Of a stretch of 64,000 nucleotides of DNA, positions 11,601 to 42,323 are shown piece after piece; within the stretch, counting starts at the first letter, position 1, and every line of letters starts with the position of its first letter. Location of the stretch: the NCBI GenBank assembly GCA_000004985.1, contig GG738846.1; one strand, given 5' to 3'. Below the pieces are notes generated by a model. It did not search any database, was not told where the DNA came from, and saw only the letters and a list, made by a program, of their open reading frames with translations. The position numbers were made by a program, and so were the translations under genes. The stretch comes from Naegleria gruberi (Eukaryota).

Positions 11601-12562
11601 ATGAAAGAACATGATATTGAACAATTTATTGAATGGTCCCACAACATTGGAGCCTTCAAACATGAAAATATTGACTTGAAATTCATCTCCTCCGAGTGTG
11701 GTATCGGAGGTATTCTAACATCAGACATTCAAGCCTCTGAAGATGATCAAGTGGATTTATTATCTGTTCCTTTGGAAAATTGTTTAAATGTTAGGAATAT
11801 GAATAGGGAATTTAGAGATTTAATATCGGAATTGAAATTAATTGCTGATGGAAATAATGATAAGAATGAAGAACTTGCTTCTCAGTGGAAGGGAACAAAC
11901 ATGTTTGAAAATGGATTAATTGTTTTCTACATGTTTTTAATTTATGAGTTACATGTTGAGAAGGAGAAGAGTACACACTTTCCATATTTGAATTTATTAC
12001 CAAGGGAATTTACTACAGCTCTTTATTTTGATGAAGATGAAATGGCTGCATTGAGATCTACCAATTTGTACAAATCTGTGCAGAGTATTAGACAAAATTT
12101 GAAGCAAATTTACGAAACGAAAGTGGAATATTTAATGAACAAGTATCCACAAAAGTTTGATAGACAAGTGTTTAGTTATGAGAATTTCATGTGGGCTTTT
12201 TCTGCTGTTTGGTCAAGAGTTTTTCCAATTGAATATCCTGCAGAGAATGGAGAAGGTGTGGAAATTGTTCCAACATTATTGCCAACAGTTGACATTTTGA
12301 ATCACAAATTTAATGCCAAGATTACATATTTCACAGGATCTGACAGAAGATTCTACTTGAAAACAAGAGAATCTCTCAAAAGCGGAGACTATGTCTGCAA
12401 CAATTATGGAGCAAAGAGTAATGATTCATTCTTATTGAGTTATGGATTTGTCATTCCAAATAATTCTGAAGACACTCTCTATGTTCAATTTGGTATTTCT
12501 GATGATGGCAATGAAGAATTGGTTCAATTCAAGAAAAAGTATTTGGAAGACAATTCTCTCAA
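11601..12562 (+). CDS. SET-domain lysine methyltransferase, SETD3/SETD6/Rubisco-LSMT-like; exon 1 of 3
   Basis: ATG at 11601. The SET C-terminal signature is ILNHKFNAKITYF ... GDYVCNNYGAKSNDSFLLSYGFVIPNN. The exon ends at 12562 with a GTAAGT donor at 12563-12568. The TAA that closes the raw ORF lies inside that donor. Confidence 0.7.
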
Positions 12563-12603
12563 GTAAGTTTTATAACATCTTTATCTTGATAATATTCCAA
12601 TAG

Positions 12604-13495
12604 TCTTGGATTTTATCTCAAAAAACAACAACTGCCAGAAGACATGCTAGATTCCATTCGTATCTGTATGATGACCGAAGATGATTTTTATCTTGCCAAA
12701 CAATCAACAATCTCTCAACACAGAGAACAATCTAAGGATTCTGTCTACAGATTCAGTGTAAAGAATGAATTCAAAATGCTTCACACACTGAGGTCATTGT
12801 TCATATCAAAGAGACGTCTCTTCCCAACCACTATTGAAGAAGATGAAGAAGAGTTGAGTGAAGAAACCAACTTTAACATGCAAAATATTCTCATTTACAT
12901 AATTGGACAAAAGAAGATTATTGAAAATGCCTTGAAATGCATTGATGAAAAACTCTCTACTTTGCTTGGAACCTATACCAAACTTGTGGACAATAATAAT
13001 CATCAGGAAAATATTCTCCAAACCATGAAGAATATCTTTATTGAAAATAGTGGAAAATTATCTGTGGAAATGAGACCAGAATTGAATTCTTTCCATGCCA
13101 TTTCCAAAGAATCCATCTCAAAAGGTGAAATAGTAATGATTGTCAAATCAGAGGAATTAATAGATGTGGATAATGCTCTTGATTCCCCGTTTGGAGAATT
13201 CTACACTGAGGCAAGAGAGGAGGATCTCAGTGCCAATCTCGATGATGAAATGGCTGTCATGTTTTACATTATGTTTGAAATGTTCTCCTCTCCAAATTCA
13301 CCTCTCAAGTCCAATAATCACAAAAAGTTTTTCAATCTCCTTCTCAAGCATTACAATTTCCAAGAAACTCCATTCCTCTCCGAAAAACTTCAAGATGAGC
13401 TGAGTGGAACCAATACCCTTGATTTGATTCAGAGAACAAGAGATGGACTTTCTGAAGTTTTCGAGGAGATTAAGAGTGCCCTCATACAGTCTGGT
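12604..13495 (+). CDS. SETD3/LSMT-like methyltransferase; exon 2 of 3 (substrate-binding region)
   Basis: A 41-nt intron (12563-12603, GTAAGT ... CCAATAG) joins in phase 2 to the frame of ORF 12644-13525. The exon ends at 13495 before a GTAAGT donor (13496-13501). Confidence 0.6.
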
Positions 13496-13542
13496 GTAAG
13501 TTTTCATTCTCTAATTTTTTACTGAAATTTATATTTTCACAG

Positions 13543-14229
13543 TTGCAAGATGAGGAAAATGTAATGACCTTTGAAAACTTTCTAGTTGCCTATTCAGTAT
13601 TTGATTTGTTCGCTGTTGGATCAGAGACTGTATTACCAATACCAGCAATTTCACAATTAGGCAGCTTTTTGGTTGAGTTTGATGATGGAAATCTTGTGGT
13701 TAAAAGTTTGATTGACATTCCTAAAGATAAGATTATTACCTTCTCTGCCCTTTCACTCACAAAACCAATCGAAGACTTACTCATGTACAACATTTATCCA
13801 ATTGATTATGAATTGGCCTTGCCTAATGTAAAACATGCCATTGGTATTGATTTGGAATCTTTAGAATCTCTCATTACACAACAAAAGCTTGACATTTTGA
13901 ATTTTTTGAACAATTTATCCTTCACTCACTATTTGACAAGAGGTAGAAAGTGTAGCCTTCTTCCAATCCAATTAGGAGTTTTATTTACTACAGATGAGAT
14001 TGCACTTTCAAACCTTCTCAATCAAAAAAAGATTGAAATTAACATGTTTGATTCGTCAGTCATGGAGAATGTGAATCACGTCATTAGTGCAATGGTTGAA
14101 AACTTTGCAAGTGCCTTCTCAGAGAATGAGGAAGCAGTAGAAGAAATCAGAACACTGTCAAGTATAGAACAGAATGCAAAACTCTTCTTTCCTCACTTCT
14201 TTCAGAATAAAAACCTTCAATTTTATTAA
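13543..14229 (+). CDS. SETD3/LSMT-like methyltransferase; exon 3 of 3
   Basis: A 47-nt intron (13496-13542, GTAAGT ... TTTCACAG) joins in phase 0. The ORF-track 'M' at 13543 is a TTG codon, so this is not an independent start. Combined CDS is 2541 nt, about 846 aa. Confidence 0.6.
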   Translation: MQDEENVMTFENFLVAYSVFDLFAVGSETVLPIPAISQLGSFLVEFDDGNLVVKSLIDIPKDKIITFSALSLTKPIEDLLMYNIYPIDYELALPNVKHAIGIDLESLESLITQQKLDILNFLNNLSFTHYLTRGRKCSLLPIQLGVLFTTDEIALSNLLNQKKIEINMFDSSVMENVNHVISAMVENFASAFSENEEAVEEIRTLSSIEQNAKLFFPHFFQNKNLQFY

Positions 14230-35406: not shown

Positions 35407-36285
35407 ATGAGTTCTACTAAGGTTCAAGTACCTCTCACTGATGAGAGCGAGGAAGATGATGTATTTGACTATGAGGTTGGTGATGACGATGACGAGTATA
35501 GTGATGAGGAGGATCATAAAGCAACCTCATCTTCCTTATTACATGCAACGAATAGTAATCCATTTGCCCCAATGCAAGCTTATAAACAATTACTCGGAAG
35601 TGATGTTGAAACAATACGAGCCTTTTTGGAAAACAAATCAAAGAACAAGTACTTTTATATAACGGTAAAGATGGGAGAAAAGAAGGGAAAATTGCGAGTA
35701 AGAATGGGCAGAGAAATTAACAGTTTTGATTTTGAAGATGCTATCGAGTTAACATTGGAGCAACAAACATATATCAGTTTTACTGGAATGGAAAATAAGA
35801 GAACAGGAGAGGTGTTTCCAATGATAGAACATCCAGTTATTCCTGGAACCACCTTACTGGAAAAAAAGTATGTCAGCAAGATGAAGGATGGAGAGGAATA
35901 CTTTTTATTAACAAGGGATATCAGAGATGATGCAGCTAATTTACTTACTCGTGAACAATTGGAGAGTATTAGAGAAAAATTCAACAAGATTGATGAGAAT
36001 AGAACTGGTTTTATATCTCACGATGAAATTAGGAAATATTTTGCAAAACATAGAGACCAAAAGATTTCCAGTTATATAGAATTTGCCAATGAAAAGATTA
36101 GAAAAGAACCTAAGAAGGAAGATTACCATCAACAACAACTTCAAAAGAGAATTAACATGGCAAAGAAACAATACCAAAAGAATGTAGACTATTTCCTCTC
36201 CATTGATATTAACGGAGATGGTTCAATCAGTTTTGAAGAATTTAGAAATAACGAAGTCAAATCTTACATTACTCAAAATAAATAA
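35407..36285 (+). CDS. EF-hand calcium-binding protein with acidic N-terminus (292 aa)
   Basis: ATG at 35407. The C-terminal half carries EF-hand loops DENRTGFISHDE and DINGDGSISFEE. Confidence 0.6.
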   Translation: MSSTKVQVPLTDESEEDDVFDYEVGDDDDEYSDEEDHKATSSSLLHATNSNPFAPMQAYKQLLGSDVETIRAFLENKSKNKYFYITVKMGEKKGKLRVRMGREINSFDFEDAIELTLEQQTYISFTGMENKRTGEVFPMIEHPVIPGTTLLEKKYVSKMKDGEEYFLLTRDIRDDAANLLTREQLESIREKFNKIDENRTGFISHDEIRKYFAKHRDQKISSYIEFANEKIRKEPKKEDYHQQQLQKRINMAKKQYQKNVDYFLSIDINGDGSISFEEFRNNEVKSYITQNK

Positions 36286-36333: not shown

Positions 36334-37618
36334 ATGCTGTTTTTACAAAACATAATATTACGAAACAAACGAAAAAAAATGCTTTCACACCTGTCTCCAC
36401 ATGATGATGACTTAATTTCCGAGTCAAGTGATCATCATGATGGATCATCCAATAATAATAATAATAGGATGGAAAAGGTAGAGATGGCAATTATTTCCGA
36501 TTTGATTGAACATTTCAATCAGAGAATTTTCAATAGTACAATAACAGAGAAGGAACAATCGGAAGAACAATCCCTTCTTAAAAACGAATTGATGAAAATT
36601 GTACAATCGGAATCATTTCCTGCTCTTACAATGAAATTCTTGAGTTTAATTAAAATATTGAATAGGCCAAGTCTAAAAAGAATTGCTATTGAATTTATTC
36701 CCAAGATTTGTGGAAGCTCCGAGGAGGAAAATTCCAAAATTATTGAAGTATTGGATGGAATATTCAAGAGTGAGAATGCATTGACAAGGATTGTGATTTC
36801 AACCTTGTACAAGTTGGAAAATTTAAAAGATTCACAACAGGAGAAGGTTTTATTCATTGCACAAAATGCATTGGAATCGGTTGAGGAGGAGGATTTGGAT
36901 GATATTGTCAAGATCATGTTGAAGAATGTGACGAAAAAGAATAGTAGTGAAATTGTAAAGTACATTCGAGAAAAATTGGCCAATGATGACGTGGCCATTG
37001 TTAGGATTAGCTCTGAATTATTGGCAGACACATTTTCAACGACGCCATCTCTTGCTAATTATTTCCTAAAATCTTTAAAAGCAGAACAAGAGGAATTTTC
37101 TAAATTTGATGTTTTAATTTTAATGGTATTACTATCAACTAGGCACAGAGATAGAAATTCAACCTTTACAATATTTAAGAATGCATTTCAAAACAAACCA
37201 CAAAGAATGATTAATATTTCAACAATTTTGGATACCTTGAGTGCTGTTGGAAGTCTTTTGGATGATTGTAAATATGTAGACAGGATTTACAACTCGATAT
37301 ATATATTTATTATTTATTTATTATCAAATAGTGAGTTGTTTACAGATGAGAAGGGTGTACCATGGGTTTATAGTATTTTCATTCACTCGTTCAAGAGTTT
37401 CAAACCACTGAGAAGCAAATTTTTAACATCACTCTTGGCATTGTTTCAGTACAATGATTCCAAGTCGAATATTGCTGCGGAAATTTTGATAGGTTTATGT
37501 GATTTTGAGCAGAATGAAGAAGAGGATGAGGAATTTTCTGCCAGTCTGTGTAAACAAATTGCCTTGAATCATTTATCGATAATTAAGGATTCTCTGGCAC
37601 ATGCTGTTTCATATTCTA
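36334..37618 (+). CDS. FANCD2-like (Fanconi anaemia D2/I family) alpha-solenoid protein, exon 1 of 4
   Basis: ATG at 36334 (an alternative ATG is at 36379). The segment EEDLDDIVKIMLKNVTKKNSSEIVKYIREKL aligns with human FANCD2 [30 protein letters not shown]. Overall length is about 1320 aa with an acidic C-terminus. The exon ends at 37618 at a GTAGGT donor. Confidence 0.55.
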
Positions 37619-37672
37619 GTAGGTTTCACATTACAATGACTTTATATAATGATTATTACCAATAATTAATAG

Positions 37673-38160
37673 TAAGATGTCAACATTCACTTTGTTATTC
37701 TTTGGCCAAGTGCTCAATTCACGATCCAAAAACATTCGAGTACTTGATGATATTTATTAGAAAGCAAATTTTCAGTGGACAAGATAAGAAATCCCAACTA
37801 GGCCTTATTATTTCAATGCACCTAATTCATGAAACACACTACATGATCAGTTCAGACATTGACAGATTTGTTTTTTCACTATTTAACACGAAAAATTTTG
37901 ACGAAAATTCAATTCATATTTTAGATTTATTTATTTATAATTTTGATATTTTACTCAATATGGGGTTCGCTTCAAGAATGAAAGCAATCATTGTACAGTT
38001 ATTGAAAAATTTGGCAATTATTGACACGTTCCCAGAAATTTCACAACAAAGTAATTTTGAATTCAGAAAATTCTGCTCCATCAATACTCTTACACTTACC
38101 TCACTTCGAGCATTATCCATGCTAGTCAAGTGCTACATTCTCTGCCATGAAAATGATCAG
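37673..38160 (+). CDS. FANCD2-like, exon 2 of 4
   Basis: The 54-nt intron (37619-37672, GTAGGT ... TTAATAG) removes the single in-frame TAA at 37663 and joins in phase 1. The exon ends at a GTAAGT donor at 38161. Confidence 0.45.
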
Positions 38161-38209
38161 GTAAGTTTGTTTGTTATGGATTCTTCTAAAAGAATTGAAT
38201 TAATAATAG

Positions 38210-39693
38210 TATCCTCTAAGCATGGCACTAATGCAAATTGGAGCAAAAGGAATTTCTAAAGAAGAATTAATGTGTATATATTCTATTGGTTATGTTTTAT
38301 ATGATCATGTTATTGAGAAGAATGTTTTGATAGAAAATCTTGACAAGGAAGACCAAGATTCTATGGTTGACTATACCGAGTATTTGCTACAGTTGAGAAT
38401 TGATATTGTAACATCTGAATCCATCAATGATACATTACACGCTTTGGATTTGGATGCATTTTTCAAATTATTCCCTCTCAGTGTGGAAATCATTTCACTC
38501 TTTATCAGAAAATACAAACACGAATATGACGAAGTATCCATGAAGAAGGAACGAGAGGCATTCAAATGCCTTTGGTCAGATTTTGATTTCATGTTGAAGC
38601 ATTTACTATTATTCAAATCGGATGAGGAAGAATCAGAGAGTCATAAATCAAATGCTAAGGGAAAGGGCGTATTTGCTCCAGATTTCAAAATTCTCTCACC
38701 CAAAAGAGTACTATTATTTGGTTCATTGTTGGAGGGAAGAAAGTCACCGAGCTCCATTTTCCAATTCATTTCTCTCACCAAGAAGGTCATTGGTGCTCTG
38801 GTGAAAAAGAGTTTCAAATATACTACTCTCTTGGCAGAGAAGAAATCAGAGATGAAAGTGAATCAAGACACTCAAAGTTTAGAAGGAAAAGACAAGGTTG
38901 ACCATTTGGTAATATGTCTATCGTATATTTATTGCTCACTTTCGAATGTGTTTTTTGTGACAAGAAACATTGATGAGGATGCATTCGAAGAGTTGATTTC
39001 TTCCTTTAAGAAGAATGACACTTCCATTCCAATTAATGTAATTTATCTTGTTCGATTGATTTTAAAACAAATTGAGGATGCTTCTTACTTTATTCATGCT
39101 TTCCAATTGAATCTTTTATTGGTATCCATTTGCCAAGGAAAGGAACTGCAAAAGATTATTGGCTATGTAGGTCTAGAATTATTGACACGAGTCTTTAGTT
39201 CTACATCTCAATCATCTACAATTGAAAAGATAGCCATGGAAGCTTATGTTTTCAAAGAATTACCATTCCATCACTTATTACACCACAGAGAAATTGCAAG
39301 AAAACGAAAAAATCCAAACATATCCAAGTACCTTAACCAAGCAACTCTTCTGTTTGCTCTCACCTATTTACCAGCAGAGGAAGGGAGAGATTTGTGTGAT
39401 TTTTTCGTATTGGCTCTTGATGATTTCCTTCATGCAATGAAAGAGGAGCAAGACGTTCACGTTCAACATCATCCCTTGAGTATTCTGGATGAGAATAGTT
39501 TTCACTACTTTTTACAAATATTTACCAAGATTTTTGAGATGGCCATTATCAATGCTCCTTGTGTGCCAGTCGATAATGGAGGAAATAGAAACTTTATCAG
39601 AATTGAAGATCCTTTGGATAACATGAGGAAAGTAATTTTGATTTACATGTCATTTCAGGAGAGTGAATTTCTTAGAAAGAACAGAAAGGATAG
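38210..39693 (+). CDS. FANCD2-like, exon 3 of 4
   Basis: The 49-nt intron (38161-38209) ends in AATAG and enters the frame of ORF 38222-39844. The exon ends at 39693 before a GTTAGT donor. Confidence 0.55.
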
Positions 39694-39773
39694 GTTAGTA
39701 GTAATTATTCAATTTTTATTTACCTTTGTTAATTACTTATTTACGTTTTACAATATATATTCAATCTATATAG

Positions 39774-40485
39774 TGGAGAAGTATTGGCTCAGTCATGTTT
39801 ATCAGTGGCACCTATTATTCAATCAAAATTGGATGAATGTTTAAGGTATATTACAGATAGGGCAGATGAAATCGATTTTGAAATGGTGAGATCAGACTAT
39901 TTCTCATTGTTTGATAGGGTGAAGTGTTTTTGTGATGCTTGTTTTGCCCTGTGTGATGAGCAGAAGAAATTTTCAGATCCGGACTCAAAAACAGATGGAA
40001 AATTGAGACAAGAAATGTTAAAACTATTCCAGAAACAATATGATTTGGAAGTTTTTTTGAGAGATTTGTGTGAAAAGAATCATTTCGAATACTTTAATGG
40101 AAATCAAGTTGCCAATGACGCTTTCAAAGTTTGGAATTGTACACCACGATATAGAAAATCTTTGGAAGAAAAAGTTGACGAGATGAATACTAATAATATT
40201 TGGGCTGAATTATTTACGCAAGATTTTGATATTGGATCACTTTGGGAAAACCCACCAACAGAAACCTTCTTTGATAGCTACATTTTGTTTGCCAATGAGT
40301 TGGCCAACTTTGTTGTTGAGGCAGATGACTTGGAGGAAGATATCTTCTCCTCTGACGAAGAAGAGGAGCAAGAAGGCGCCTCAATTTCTATTGATGAAGC
40401 TCGTAATAGATTACAAAAACGAAAAACAATTGAGGAACCAACATCAGAACCTCACATTCTTCAGCCAAGAAAAAAGCAAAAATAA
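39774..40485 (+). CDS. FANCD2-like, exon 4 of 4 (acidic tail)
   Basis: The 80-nt intron (39694-39773) ends in CTATATAG. The phase-2 join gives ...KDS GEVLAQSCLS..., which matches the frame of ORF 39784-40485 (the track start there is TTG). Confidence 0.55.
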
Positions 40486-40508
40486 TGTATTGATAAAAAA
40501 CTAAGAGT

Positions 40509-42323
40509 TTAAAATTTGAACTTCTTTTGTGAAGAAGGTTTGTCGTTTCTCTTTCTCTTCTTGTCATCCTCATTGTTTGGTTGTTGATGGGAAGAAGTAG
40601 GAGGTAACATGTTGTTAGAGGCATAACTCCTTGATGAACCCATCATATCTCGTGATCCAATTGCTTGGTCTTTCTCTTCTAATACTCTATATAATAACTT
40701 AGGGTCATCTGATTTCTTGTTGGCAACATCTTTCCTCAGGTTGACCACTTCAGGCACTCTTTGTGAACTTGTTTGATGACTGTCCATTGGTTTTGGTGTG
40801 GTCAACCCACTGACAACAATAACGGATTCATCTTCATCCTCTTCTTCCTTAGTTTGTGCCATTTCCTCATCCGAACTATCACCACCTTCTCTTATTTCTT
40901 CAGTTTCCTCTTTTTCTTCCTCCTCTTCCTCAATAGTATCATCAATGATGTCTTCGCCCCACAATTTGACATTCTTCTCTTCCGCTTTTCTATCATCATC
41001 ATTTGCATTAGCTCCAAAAAATTTGTTATAGAGTGGTCTGTTCATGTGGTCGACAGGCAAACGACCCCAACCACCTGGATGGTAACCATAACTAGCACCT
41101 TCAGGTATAGGAGCATTGAGACCTGGTATTCTGAGATTGGAATACGAAGGGGGTGGACCATGTTCTTGCATTTTAATCAACCAAGGAGGTGGTGCATTTA
41201 CTGGCATACCCAAGGCAAGTCTCAGTCTTTCAGAGAGTGGCTTACCAGCCTTATACTTATTAATGTACTTTCTTCTCTGCTCATACTCCTTTCCTTCATA
41301 GTACAAGTCACCATGGATGGCCAAATTATCTGGTTTGGTTTGATGTTTGTAAAAAGCATCTCTCAAAACTTGATAATCAATATCCATTTTTCCTAGTTTT
41401 GGTCTCACTCTTTCTCTCATCTTTTGCTTAATGGATTTCTCATTTTCCTTTTCTTCATAAGCTTCTCTCATCTTTTGAATGCCTGTCTTGGCAATAAATT
41501 CTGGAAGCTTGAAAGGTGGCTTTACAAATCCTCTCTTTCCCTGCAAGTACTTTCTTTTTTGAGACCAGTGAGCTGGAACTGGAACAGTATTTCTATATGA
41601 TTTGAGCAAAACAAGGAATTTAGGATCTTTGGCTGTAATGTCATGAACTTCCACAACATCAGGTCTCTTGGCCAGTTGCTTCAATTGTGAAATTGTGAAA
41701 ACATATCTACGTTTCTTCTTTTTCTTCAACTTGTTTTTCTTCTTACCCTTCTTGTTGGCAATTAAAGATGCTTGATCATAATCCAATTCCTCTCCATCCT
41801 CCTCTTCTTCATCATCGTCATATTGTTCCTCATCACTACTAGTCAATTCGAATAGATCCTTTTCCTTCTTTTCTGGCTTTTCTTCCTCCTCTTCCTTTTG
41901 TTCTGTGTTTAAATCTTCCACACTTCCGAACTTGTCAAATATTCTTTTAAATTCATCAAGGATAGAACTATTTGCCTTCTTTTCAATATCTTGAATGACA
42001 TCTTTTTGTATATATTCTACATTGTTTACACTTGTCGGATCGGTAGATGATTCCGATTTTATATTTGTTGTTGTTGTTGTATTATTATTTTGAATATTAG
42101 TGGATGAATTTGTTGTTACATATAACTTTTCGAAAGGCTTCAAACCTGCTGGGAGAATAATCTTTTTCTTCTTTCTCTTTCTATTTCTCTTCTTTTTTCC
42201 ATTGGTTGTAGAAGAGGAATTTATTGTTGTTTGAGTGGCACTACTATCACCATCATTGATCGAATCGTCTTGTTCGCCTTCATCCGATAGAGGCATCATC
42301 ATGTCTTCATCCTTTAGAGACAT
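40509..42323 (-). CDS. SF3B2: Splicing factor 3B subunit 2 (SF3b145/SAP145/Cus1-like)
   Basis: ATG at 42323. The conserved SF3B2 core includes the Pro-rich PSP motif LGMPVNAPPPWLIKMQEHGPPPSYSNLRIPGLNAPIPEGASYGYHPGGWG. The N- and C-terminal regions are K/E-rich. Confidence 0.75.
   Translation of the reverse strand: MSLKDEDMMMPLSDEGEQDDSINDGDSSATQTTINSSSTTNGKKKRNRKRKKKKIILPAGLKPFEKLYVTTNSSTNIQNNNTTTTTNIKSESSTDPTSVNNVEYIQKDVIQDIEKKANSSILDEFKRIFDKFGSVEDLNTEQKEEEEEKPEKKEKDLFELTSSDEEQYDDDEEEEDGEELDYDQASLIANKKGKKKNKLKKKKKRRYVFTISQLKQLAKRPDVVEVHDITAKDPKFLVLLKSYRNTVPVPAHWSQKRKYLQGKRGFVKPPFKLPEFIAKTGIQKMREAYEEKENEKSIKQKMRERVRPKLGKMDIDYQVLRDAFYKHQTKPDNLAIHGDLYYEGKEYEQRRKYINKYKAGKPLSERLRLALGMPVNAPPPWLIKMQEHGPPPSYSNLRIPGLNAPIPEGASYGYHPGGWGRLPVDHMNRPLYNKFFGANANDDDRKAEEKNVKLWGEDIIDDTIEEEEEEKEETEEIREGGDSSDEEMAQTKEEEDEDESVIVVSGLTTPKPMDSHQTSSQRVPEVVNLRKDVANKKSDDPKLLYRVLEEKDQAIGSRDMMGSSRSYASNNMLPPTSSHQQPNNEDDKKRKRNDKPSSQKKFKF

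Follow-up and report, generated by a model that had tools for sequence, protein, structure and literature searches.

A four-exon gene of Naegleria gruberi that very probably encodes a strongly diverged FANCD2

FANCD2 is a subunit of the Fanconi-anaemia ID complex. We analysed a 64,000-nucleotide (nt) stretch of Naegleria gruberi DNA (GenBank assembly GCA_000004985.1, contig GG738846.1; hereafter the window, in whose numbering positions are given) in which four consecutive plus-strand open reading frames (ORFs) lie at 36334-37665, 37702-38259, 38222-39844 and 39784-40485. An initial annotation, made from the letters of the sequence, had read these ORFs as one FANCD2-like gene encoding an alpha-solenoid of ~1320 amino acids (aa). 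Our analysis indicates that these ORFs very probably form a single nuclear gene, of four exons and three introns, in a heterolobosean of the Naegleria clade, with a strongly diverged FANCD2 orthologue as its product. The gene itself is unremarkable, a member of a known family with expected biology, and what it offers is better annotation and profile sensitivity rather than new biology.

Exon structure and splice junctions

The gene comprises four plus-strand exons. Exon 1 (36334..37618) begins at the first in-frame ATG, at 36334, encodes the N-terminal solenoid with a motif, LDDIVKIMLKNVT (36895-36933), that aligns with human FANCD2, and ends in phase 1; exon 2 (37673..38160) holds the monoubiquitination-site motif and ends in phase 0; exon 3 (38210..39693) encodes the middle and C-terminal solenoid and ends in phase 2; and exon 4 (39774..40485) closes with a TAA stop at 40483-40485. 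Joined, they form a 3969-nt coding sequence that is open over 1322 aa with a terminal stop only, which confirms the proposed union of the four ORFs and its coordinates. The second ATG, at 36379, is the more likely start judging by the N-terminal alignment (MLSHLSPHDDD versus MLQQQGHDD in Naegleria fowleri) and would give a protein of 1307 aa. The G+C content of the window is 29-37%, and no tRNAs or Rfam families were found within it.

Between the exons lie three plus-strand introns: intron 1 (37619..37672; 54 nt, GTAGGT...AATAG, phase 1), which splits an Ile codon (A|TA), intron 2 (38161..38209; 49 nt, GTAAGT...AATAG, phase 0) and intron 3 (39694..39773; 80 nt, GTTAGT...TATAG, phase 2). As had been noted, the first two ORFs share frame 1 and are divided by a single TAA (37663..37665), the terminator of the first ORF. 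On the three-intron model this codon is never translated, because it lies inside the 54-nt phase-1 spliceosomal intron.

Two full-length relatives, N. fowleri FDP41_012142 (1353 aa) and Naegleria lovaniensis C9374_001460 (1294 aa), are both annotated as 'hypothetical protein'; with 45-48% identity across 99% of the query they are, on the sequence comparison, the orthologues of the window gene. The exon structure of the N. fowleri gene was worked out from its locus sequence and annotated protein, and contains four introns of 54, 56, 53 and 57 nt, all with GTAAGT donors. All three window introns match N. fowleri introns in both alignment position and phase. The counterpart of intron 1 is likewise 54 nt long and in phase 1 (alignment column 431), with a diverged sequence despite the equal length; that of intron 2 is 53 nt long, in phase 0 and 9 aa past a conserved KC in both species; and that of intron 3 is 57 nt long and in phase 2 (alignment column 1110). 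The remaining N. fowleri intron (56 nt long, in phase 0, following residue 503; locus sequence L001, 4564-4619) is absent from the window gene and represents a gain or loss within Naegleria.

The protein alignment is equally close at the junctions themselves. Junction 1 is ungapped against both orthologues and keeps the split Ile (AHAVSYS-I-RCQHSLCY versus SHGVTYS-I-KCQHSLCY), junction 3 is ungapped as well (RKD-S-GEVLAQS versus RNN-S-GELLAHS), and at junction 2 the same alignment shows a 2-aa indel just downstream. Lengths, ends and colinearity with the orthologues thus bear out the three clean junctions described initially. The further statement that the 54-nt intron is the sole way to bridge the first two ORFs goes too far: 23 frame-keeping GT-AG pairs would remove the TAA, although 37619-37672 is the only one that leaves the conserved SYSIRCQHSLCY intact and offers a plausible donor. 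Intron 1 has GT...AG ends, its removal reopens a frame colinear with the orthologues, and neighbouring genes in the window carry short GTAAGT introns of similar size. Taken together, the agreement at the three junctions is far beyond chance and supports the three-intron model as correct on comparative grounds.

Close relatives of this locus also occur in public metagenomes. A contig (ENA ERZ929261, 1931 nt) corresponds to window positions 37349-39276, is 99.74% identical over 1928 nt and keeps the gene structure; its five single-nucleotide polymorphisms (SNPs) are all exonic, three being synonymous and two conservative, and are therefore too few for a selection test. The ORFs of this very close strain are annotated prokaryote-style. 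In a further fragment from a near-identical strain (P0009), an additional SNP creates an ATG inside intron 3.

Alternatively, the locus could hold a disrupted gene or several independent ones, with the TAA at 37663 acting as a true stop and the ORFs unspliced, or with intron 1 mostly retained to leave a 443-aa N-terminal fragment. That the GTAGGT donor of intron 1 is not the commonest hexamer would fit such an account, as would the separate calling of the metagenome ORFs (P0006, P0009) by prokaryote-style gene callers. Nevertheless, conservation and colinearity with the orthologues extend to the residues on both sides of every junction, N. fowleri has introns at the same positions and in the same phases, coverage of the FANCD2 fold described below needs all four ORFs, and the environmental contig retains the gene structure with synonymous and conservative changes. 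We therefore regard this account as most unlikely.

Two further gene-model questions arose from these comparisons. An extra intron within exon 1 (~37268-37331), suspected from the intron-like peptide IYIFIIYLL, was rejected because the candidate GT-AG introns there, of 64 or 56 nt, would shift the frame, and because the orthologues conserve this stretch (NSIYVFILYLLSNSELF). In the N. lovaniensis model, 31 residues (GKxLQ..IGYVGL...SS.S; alignment columns 914-944) found in the window and N. fowleri proteins are missing, probably the result of an over-called intron in that annotation.

Assignment to FANCD2 by profile and fold

Exon translations and a trimmed N. fowleri orthologue served as input both for a search of 1.84 billion representative sequences and for structure prediction. 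The profile search recovered 32 relatives, among them near-identical strain fragments (P0006, P0009) as well as full-length but distant proteins. Of the distant relatives, seven have weak Pfam matches (14-26 bits, where the cut-off is 27), each of them to FancD2 at profile positions 204-370 and none to FANCI families. For one distant FANCD2-like relative (P0024, 1756 aa), the predicted protein also includes a calpain protease (PF00648, PF01067) and a Piercer domain; this fusion is probably a merged gene model.

A 17-sequence family alignment was then used as a profile against the Protein Data Bank (PDB). The matches were to FANCD2 of mouse (3s4w_B, E 5.4e-21), human (7kzq_V, E 1.1e-19; other human chains about 1e-19) and chicken (6tnf_A, E 9.6e-19; 6tni_A about 1e-18); the next matches, to importin-beta and a designed protein, had E>0.1, and no FANCI chain appeared even at E<=10. 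A second, word-indexed search with the same profile added nothing useful. For pairwise profile alignment, the human FANCD2 sequence was checked against 7kzq_V, which its residues 276-1451 match over their full length with 2646 bits, all printed columns (to residue 1230) being identical. Using hhalign, the family alignment matched human FANCD2 with 97.5% probability (E 7.8e-12, 350 columns), placing window residues 96-479 (1322-aa numbering) on human residues 190-581, and matched human FANCI (sequence checked against 7kzq_U) with 1.3% probability (E 0.04). FANCD2 is thus the family preferred over FANCI.

A corresponding picture emerged from the predicted structure. The N. fowleri orthologue, cut down to 1157 aa, was modelled with AlphaFold2 from an alignment of 25 rows, the window exons among them; the result was a confident, all-helical model (mean predicted local distance difference test score 84.7, predicted template modelling score 0.70). 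When this model was compared with the PDB by Foldseek, nine FANCD2 chains ranked first (E 1.7e-14 to 9e-12, template modelling (TM) score 0.54-0.66, ~1250 alignment columns), followed by FANCI chains (E 2e-9 to 1e-5, TM 0.45-0.54), while CAND1, importins, SF3B1 and mTOR reached TM<=0.25 with root-mean-square deviations >24 A; 201 matches had E<=0.001. The model points to a full-length FANCD2-type solenoid that is nearer to FANCD2 than to FANCI.

Human FANCI (PDB 7kzq_U, 6vaa_A) is a paralogous solenoid of the same architecture, with an analogous acceptor lysine, K523 (LRKAMF), and we considered whether the window protein could be a FANCI paralogue or an undifferentiated FANCD2/FANCI-like protein. 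The FANCI chains are significant structural matches, the length of ~1320 aa is nearer to human FANCI (1328) than to human FANCD2 (1451), and the weak hhalign alignment to FANCI puts the RK motif of the window protein on LRK(523)AMF. Against this, the profile similarity to FANCI is insignificant, the PDB search that reached FANCD2 at 5e-21 returned no FANCI chain, every FANCI chain ranks below the nine top FANCD2 chains in the structural search, and the Pfam matches of the distant relatives are to FancD2 and never to FANCI families. A FANCI identity is, in our judgement, extremely unlikely.

Several observations weigh against the FANCD2 assignment. A Pfam scan of the spliced protein gave no match to FancD2 (PF14631) or FANCI at E<=1, only sub-threshold chance matches (CtsR, phage TAC), and a single-sequence phmmer search against all PDB chains gave chance matches only, such as a TGF-beta receptor. 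Because the Pfam FancD2 model misses the protein directly, homology is shown only via the family profile and the fold. Homology at the sequence level is limited to approximately residues 96-479 and one weak C-terminal stretch, and beyond the homologous part the case draws on the predicted structure of an orthologue and not of the window protein itself. The acidic tail contains no literal EDGE motif. Finally, the splice junctions draw their support from cross-species comparison, and the GTAGGT donor of intron 1 is less canonical than the GTAAGT shared by all four N. fowleri introns. The missed PF14631 threshold is a sensitivity limit of the Pfam model rather than a defining biological feature. 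A profile built from the three Naegleria proteins also returned chance matches only from the PDB, and a 142-aa segment around Lys459 found nothing there.

The lack of direct Pfam and PDB sequence matches, together with the many low-level Foldseek matches that solenoids produce, could also be expected of an unrelated alpha-solenoid, such as an importin, CAND1 or another HEAT-repeat scaffold, that resembles FANCD2 through repeat composition only. The structural scores separate the two, with importins, CAND1, mTOR and SF3B1 far below the TM of ~0.6 seen for FANCD2, and the profile match is specific to FANCD2, with nothing else in the PDB at E<=0.1. This explanation is effectively refuted.

Acceptor lysine, C-terminal tail and proposed function

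Consistent with assignment to FANCD2, the K of FIRKQIFSGQDKKSQLGLII (Lys459, or Lys444 when counted from the ATG at 36379) aligns with human FANCD2 K561 (VIRKQLSS) in both hmmsearch and hhalign. It is encoded by an AAG codon at 37762..37764 on the plus strand, in exon 2 and 30 codons past intron 1. The surrounding motif, FIRKQIFSG, shows no change in either the N. fowleri or the N. lovaniensis orthologue, and the lysine motif is kept in both distant homologues that were read, P0007 (FIRKQLFSAQD) and P0008 (FMRKQLFSGVE). By alignment, the monoubiquitination-site lysine is therefore conserved.

The acidic tail described in the initial annotation is likewise present. There are 15 D/E among residues 1261-1300, including the stretch EADDLEEDIFSSDEEEEQEG (residues 1268-1287; 40318-40377, plus strand, exon 4), after which the protein ends in a basic PRKKQK (40465-40482, plus strand, exon 4) that is a putative nuclear localisation signal. 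This acid-rich region gave no alignment between the Naegleria and vertebrate proteins.

Compared with vertebrate FANCD2 (human Q9BXW9; PDB 7kzq_V and 6vaa_B; mouse 3s4w_B; chicken 6tnf_A), the window protein shares a homologous N-terminal and central region, a predicted full-length solenoid and an acceptor lysine within an hhRKQhxS....K..hGhI motif; its C-terminal tail is acid-rich too, in a region that does not align with the vertebrate proteins. It differs in its low identity (~12-13% by structural alignment and 20% over the part aligned by hhalign), in being ~130 aa shorter than the human protein, in its basic C-terminal end without a literal EDGE, and in escaping detection by PF14631.

Established biology of the FANCD2 family suggests how the protein may act. 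It would pair with a FANCI-like partner on DNA and, after fork stalling or interstrand cross-links, Lys459 would be monoubiquitinated by an E3/E2 pair of the FANCL/UBE2T type. With this modification the dimer would close around duplex DNA as a sliding clamp, which may coordinate repair and protect forks and would be released by a USP1-type protease.

N. gruberi orthologues of FANCD2 (JGI 61701), FANCM (69286) and UBE2T (81299) were already listed in 2014 (Arcas et al., 2014, PMC3969565, supplementary table 3). Outside animals and plants, an ID-complex component has a precedent in Dictyostelium discoideum FANCD2 (fncD2), a protist FANCD2 in a reduced Fanconi-anaemia pathway (PMC2730050); Dictyostelium belongs to Amoebozoa and Naegleria to Discoba. 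What the present analysis provides is a correct exon model and a name for a gene whose N. fowleri and N. lovaniensis orthologues are hypothetical proteins with no Pfam domain, together with confirmation of a recognisable FANCD2 with an acceptor lysine in Heterolobosea (Discoba), which is consistent with an ID complex that predates the last eukaryotic common ancestor. An alignment of the Naegleria proteins and their relatives could additionally widen the Pfam FancD2 model.

Two more speculative readings concern regulation and partnership, and both seem to us very unlikely. Because intron 1 is in frame, contains a stop codon and has kept a length of exactly 54 nt in two Naegleria lineages whose proteins are only ~48% identical, with a diverged intron sequence, it might be a regulated retained intron. 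If so, its retention would yield a ~440-aa N-terminal FANCD2 fragment without the ubiquitination lysine, and such a fragment could serve as a switch or a dominant-negative form. As a second possibility, Naegleria would be without FANCI, and FANCD2 would form a homodimeric clamp.

Neighbouring genes

Downstream of the FANCD2 gene, an SF3B2/SAP145-like gene lies convergently on the minus strand (40509-42323); its homologues carry PF04046/PF04037, and its best named homologue is from Willaertia magna (64%). The stops of the two genes (40485 on the plus strand and 40509 on the minus strand) are 23 nt apart (40486-40508), and their 3' untranslated regions must therefore overlap or be extremely short.

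Upstream, an EF-hand ORF on the plus strand (35407-36285) stops 48 nt short of the ATG at 36334 and 93 nt short of that at 36379. In N. fowleri, an EF-hand gene (L001 1841-2764) also lies directly upstream of the orthologue but on the other strand, an arrangement that suggests local synteny combined with an inversion.

Elsewhere in the window, GTAAGT...AG introns of ~46-47 nt at ~12563-12608 and ~13496-13542 (plus strand) appear to join the plus-strand ORFs 11601-12566, 12644-13525 and 13543-14229 into another multi-exon gene.

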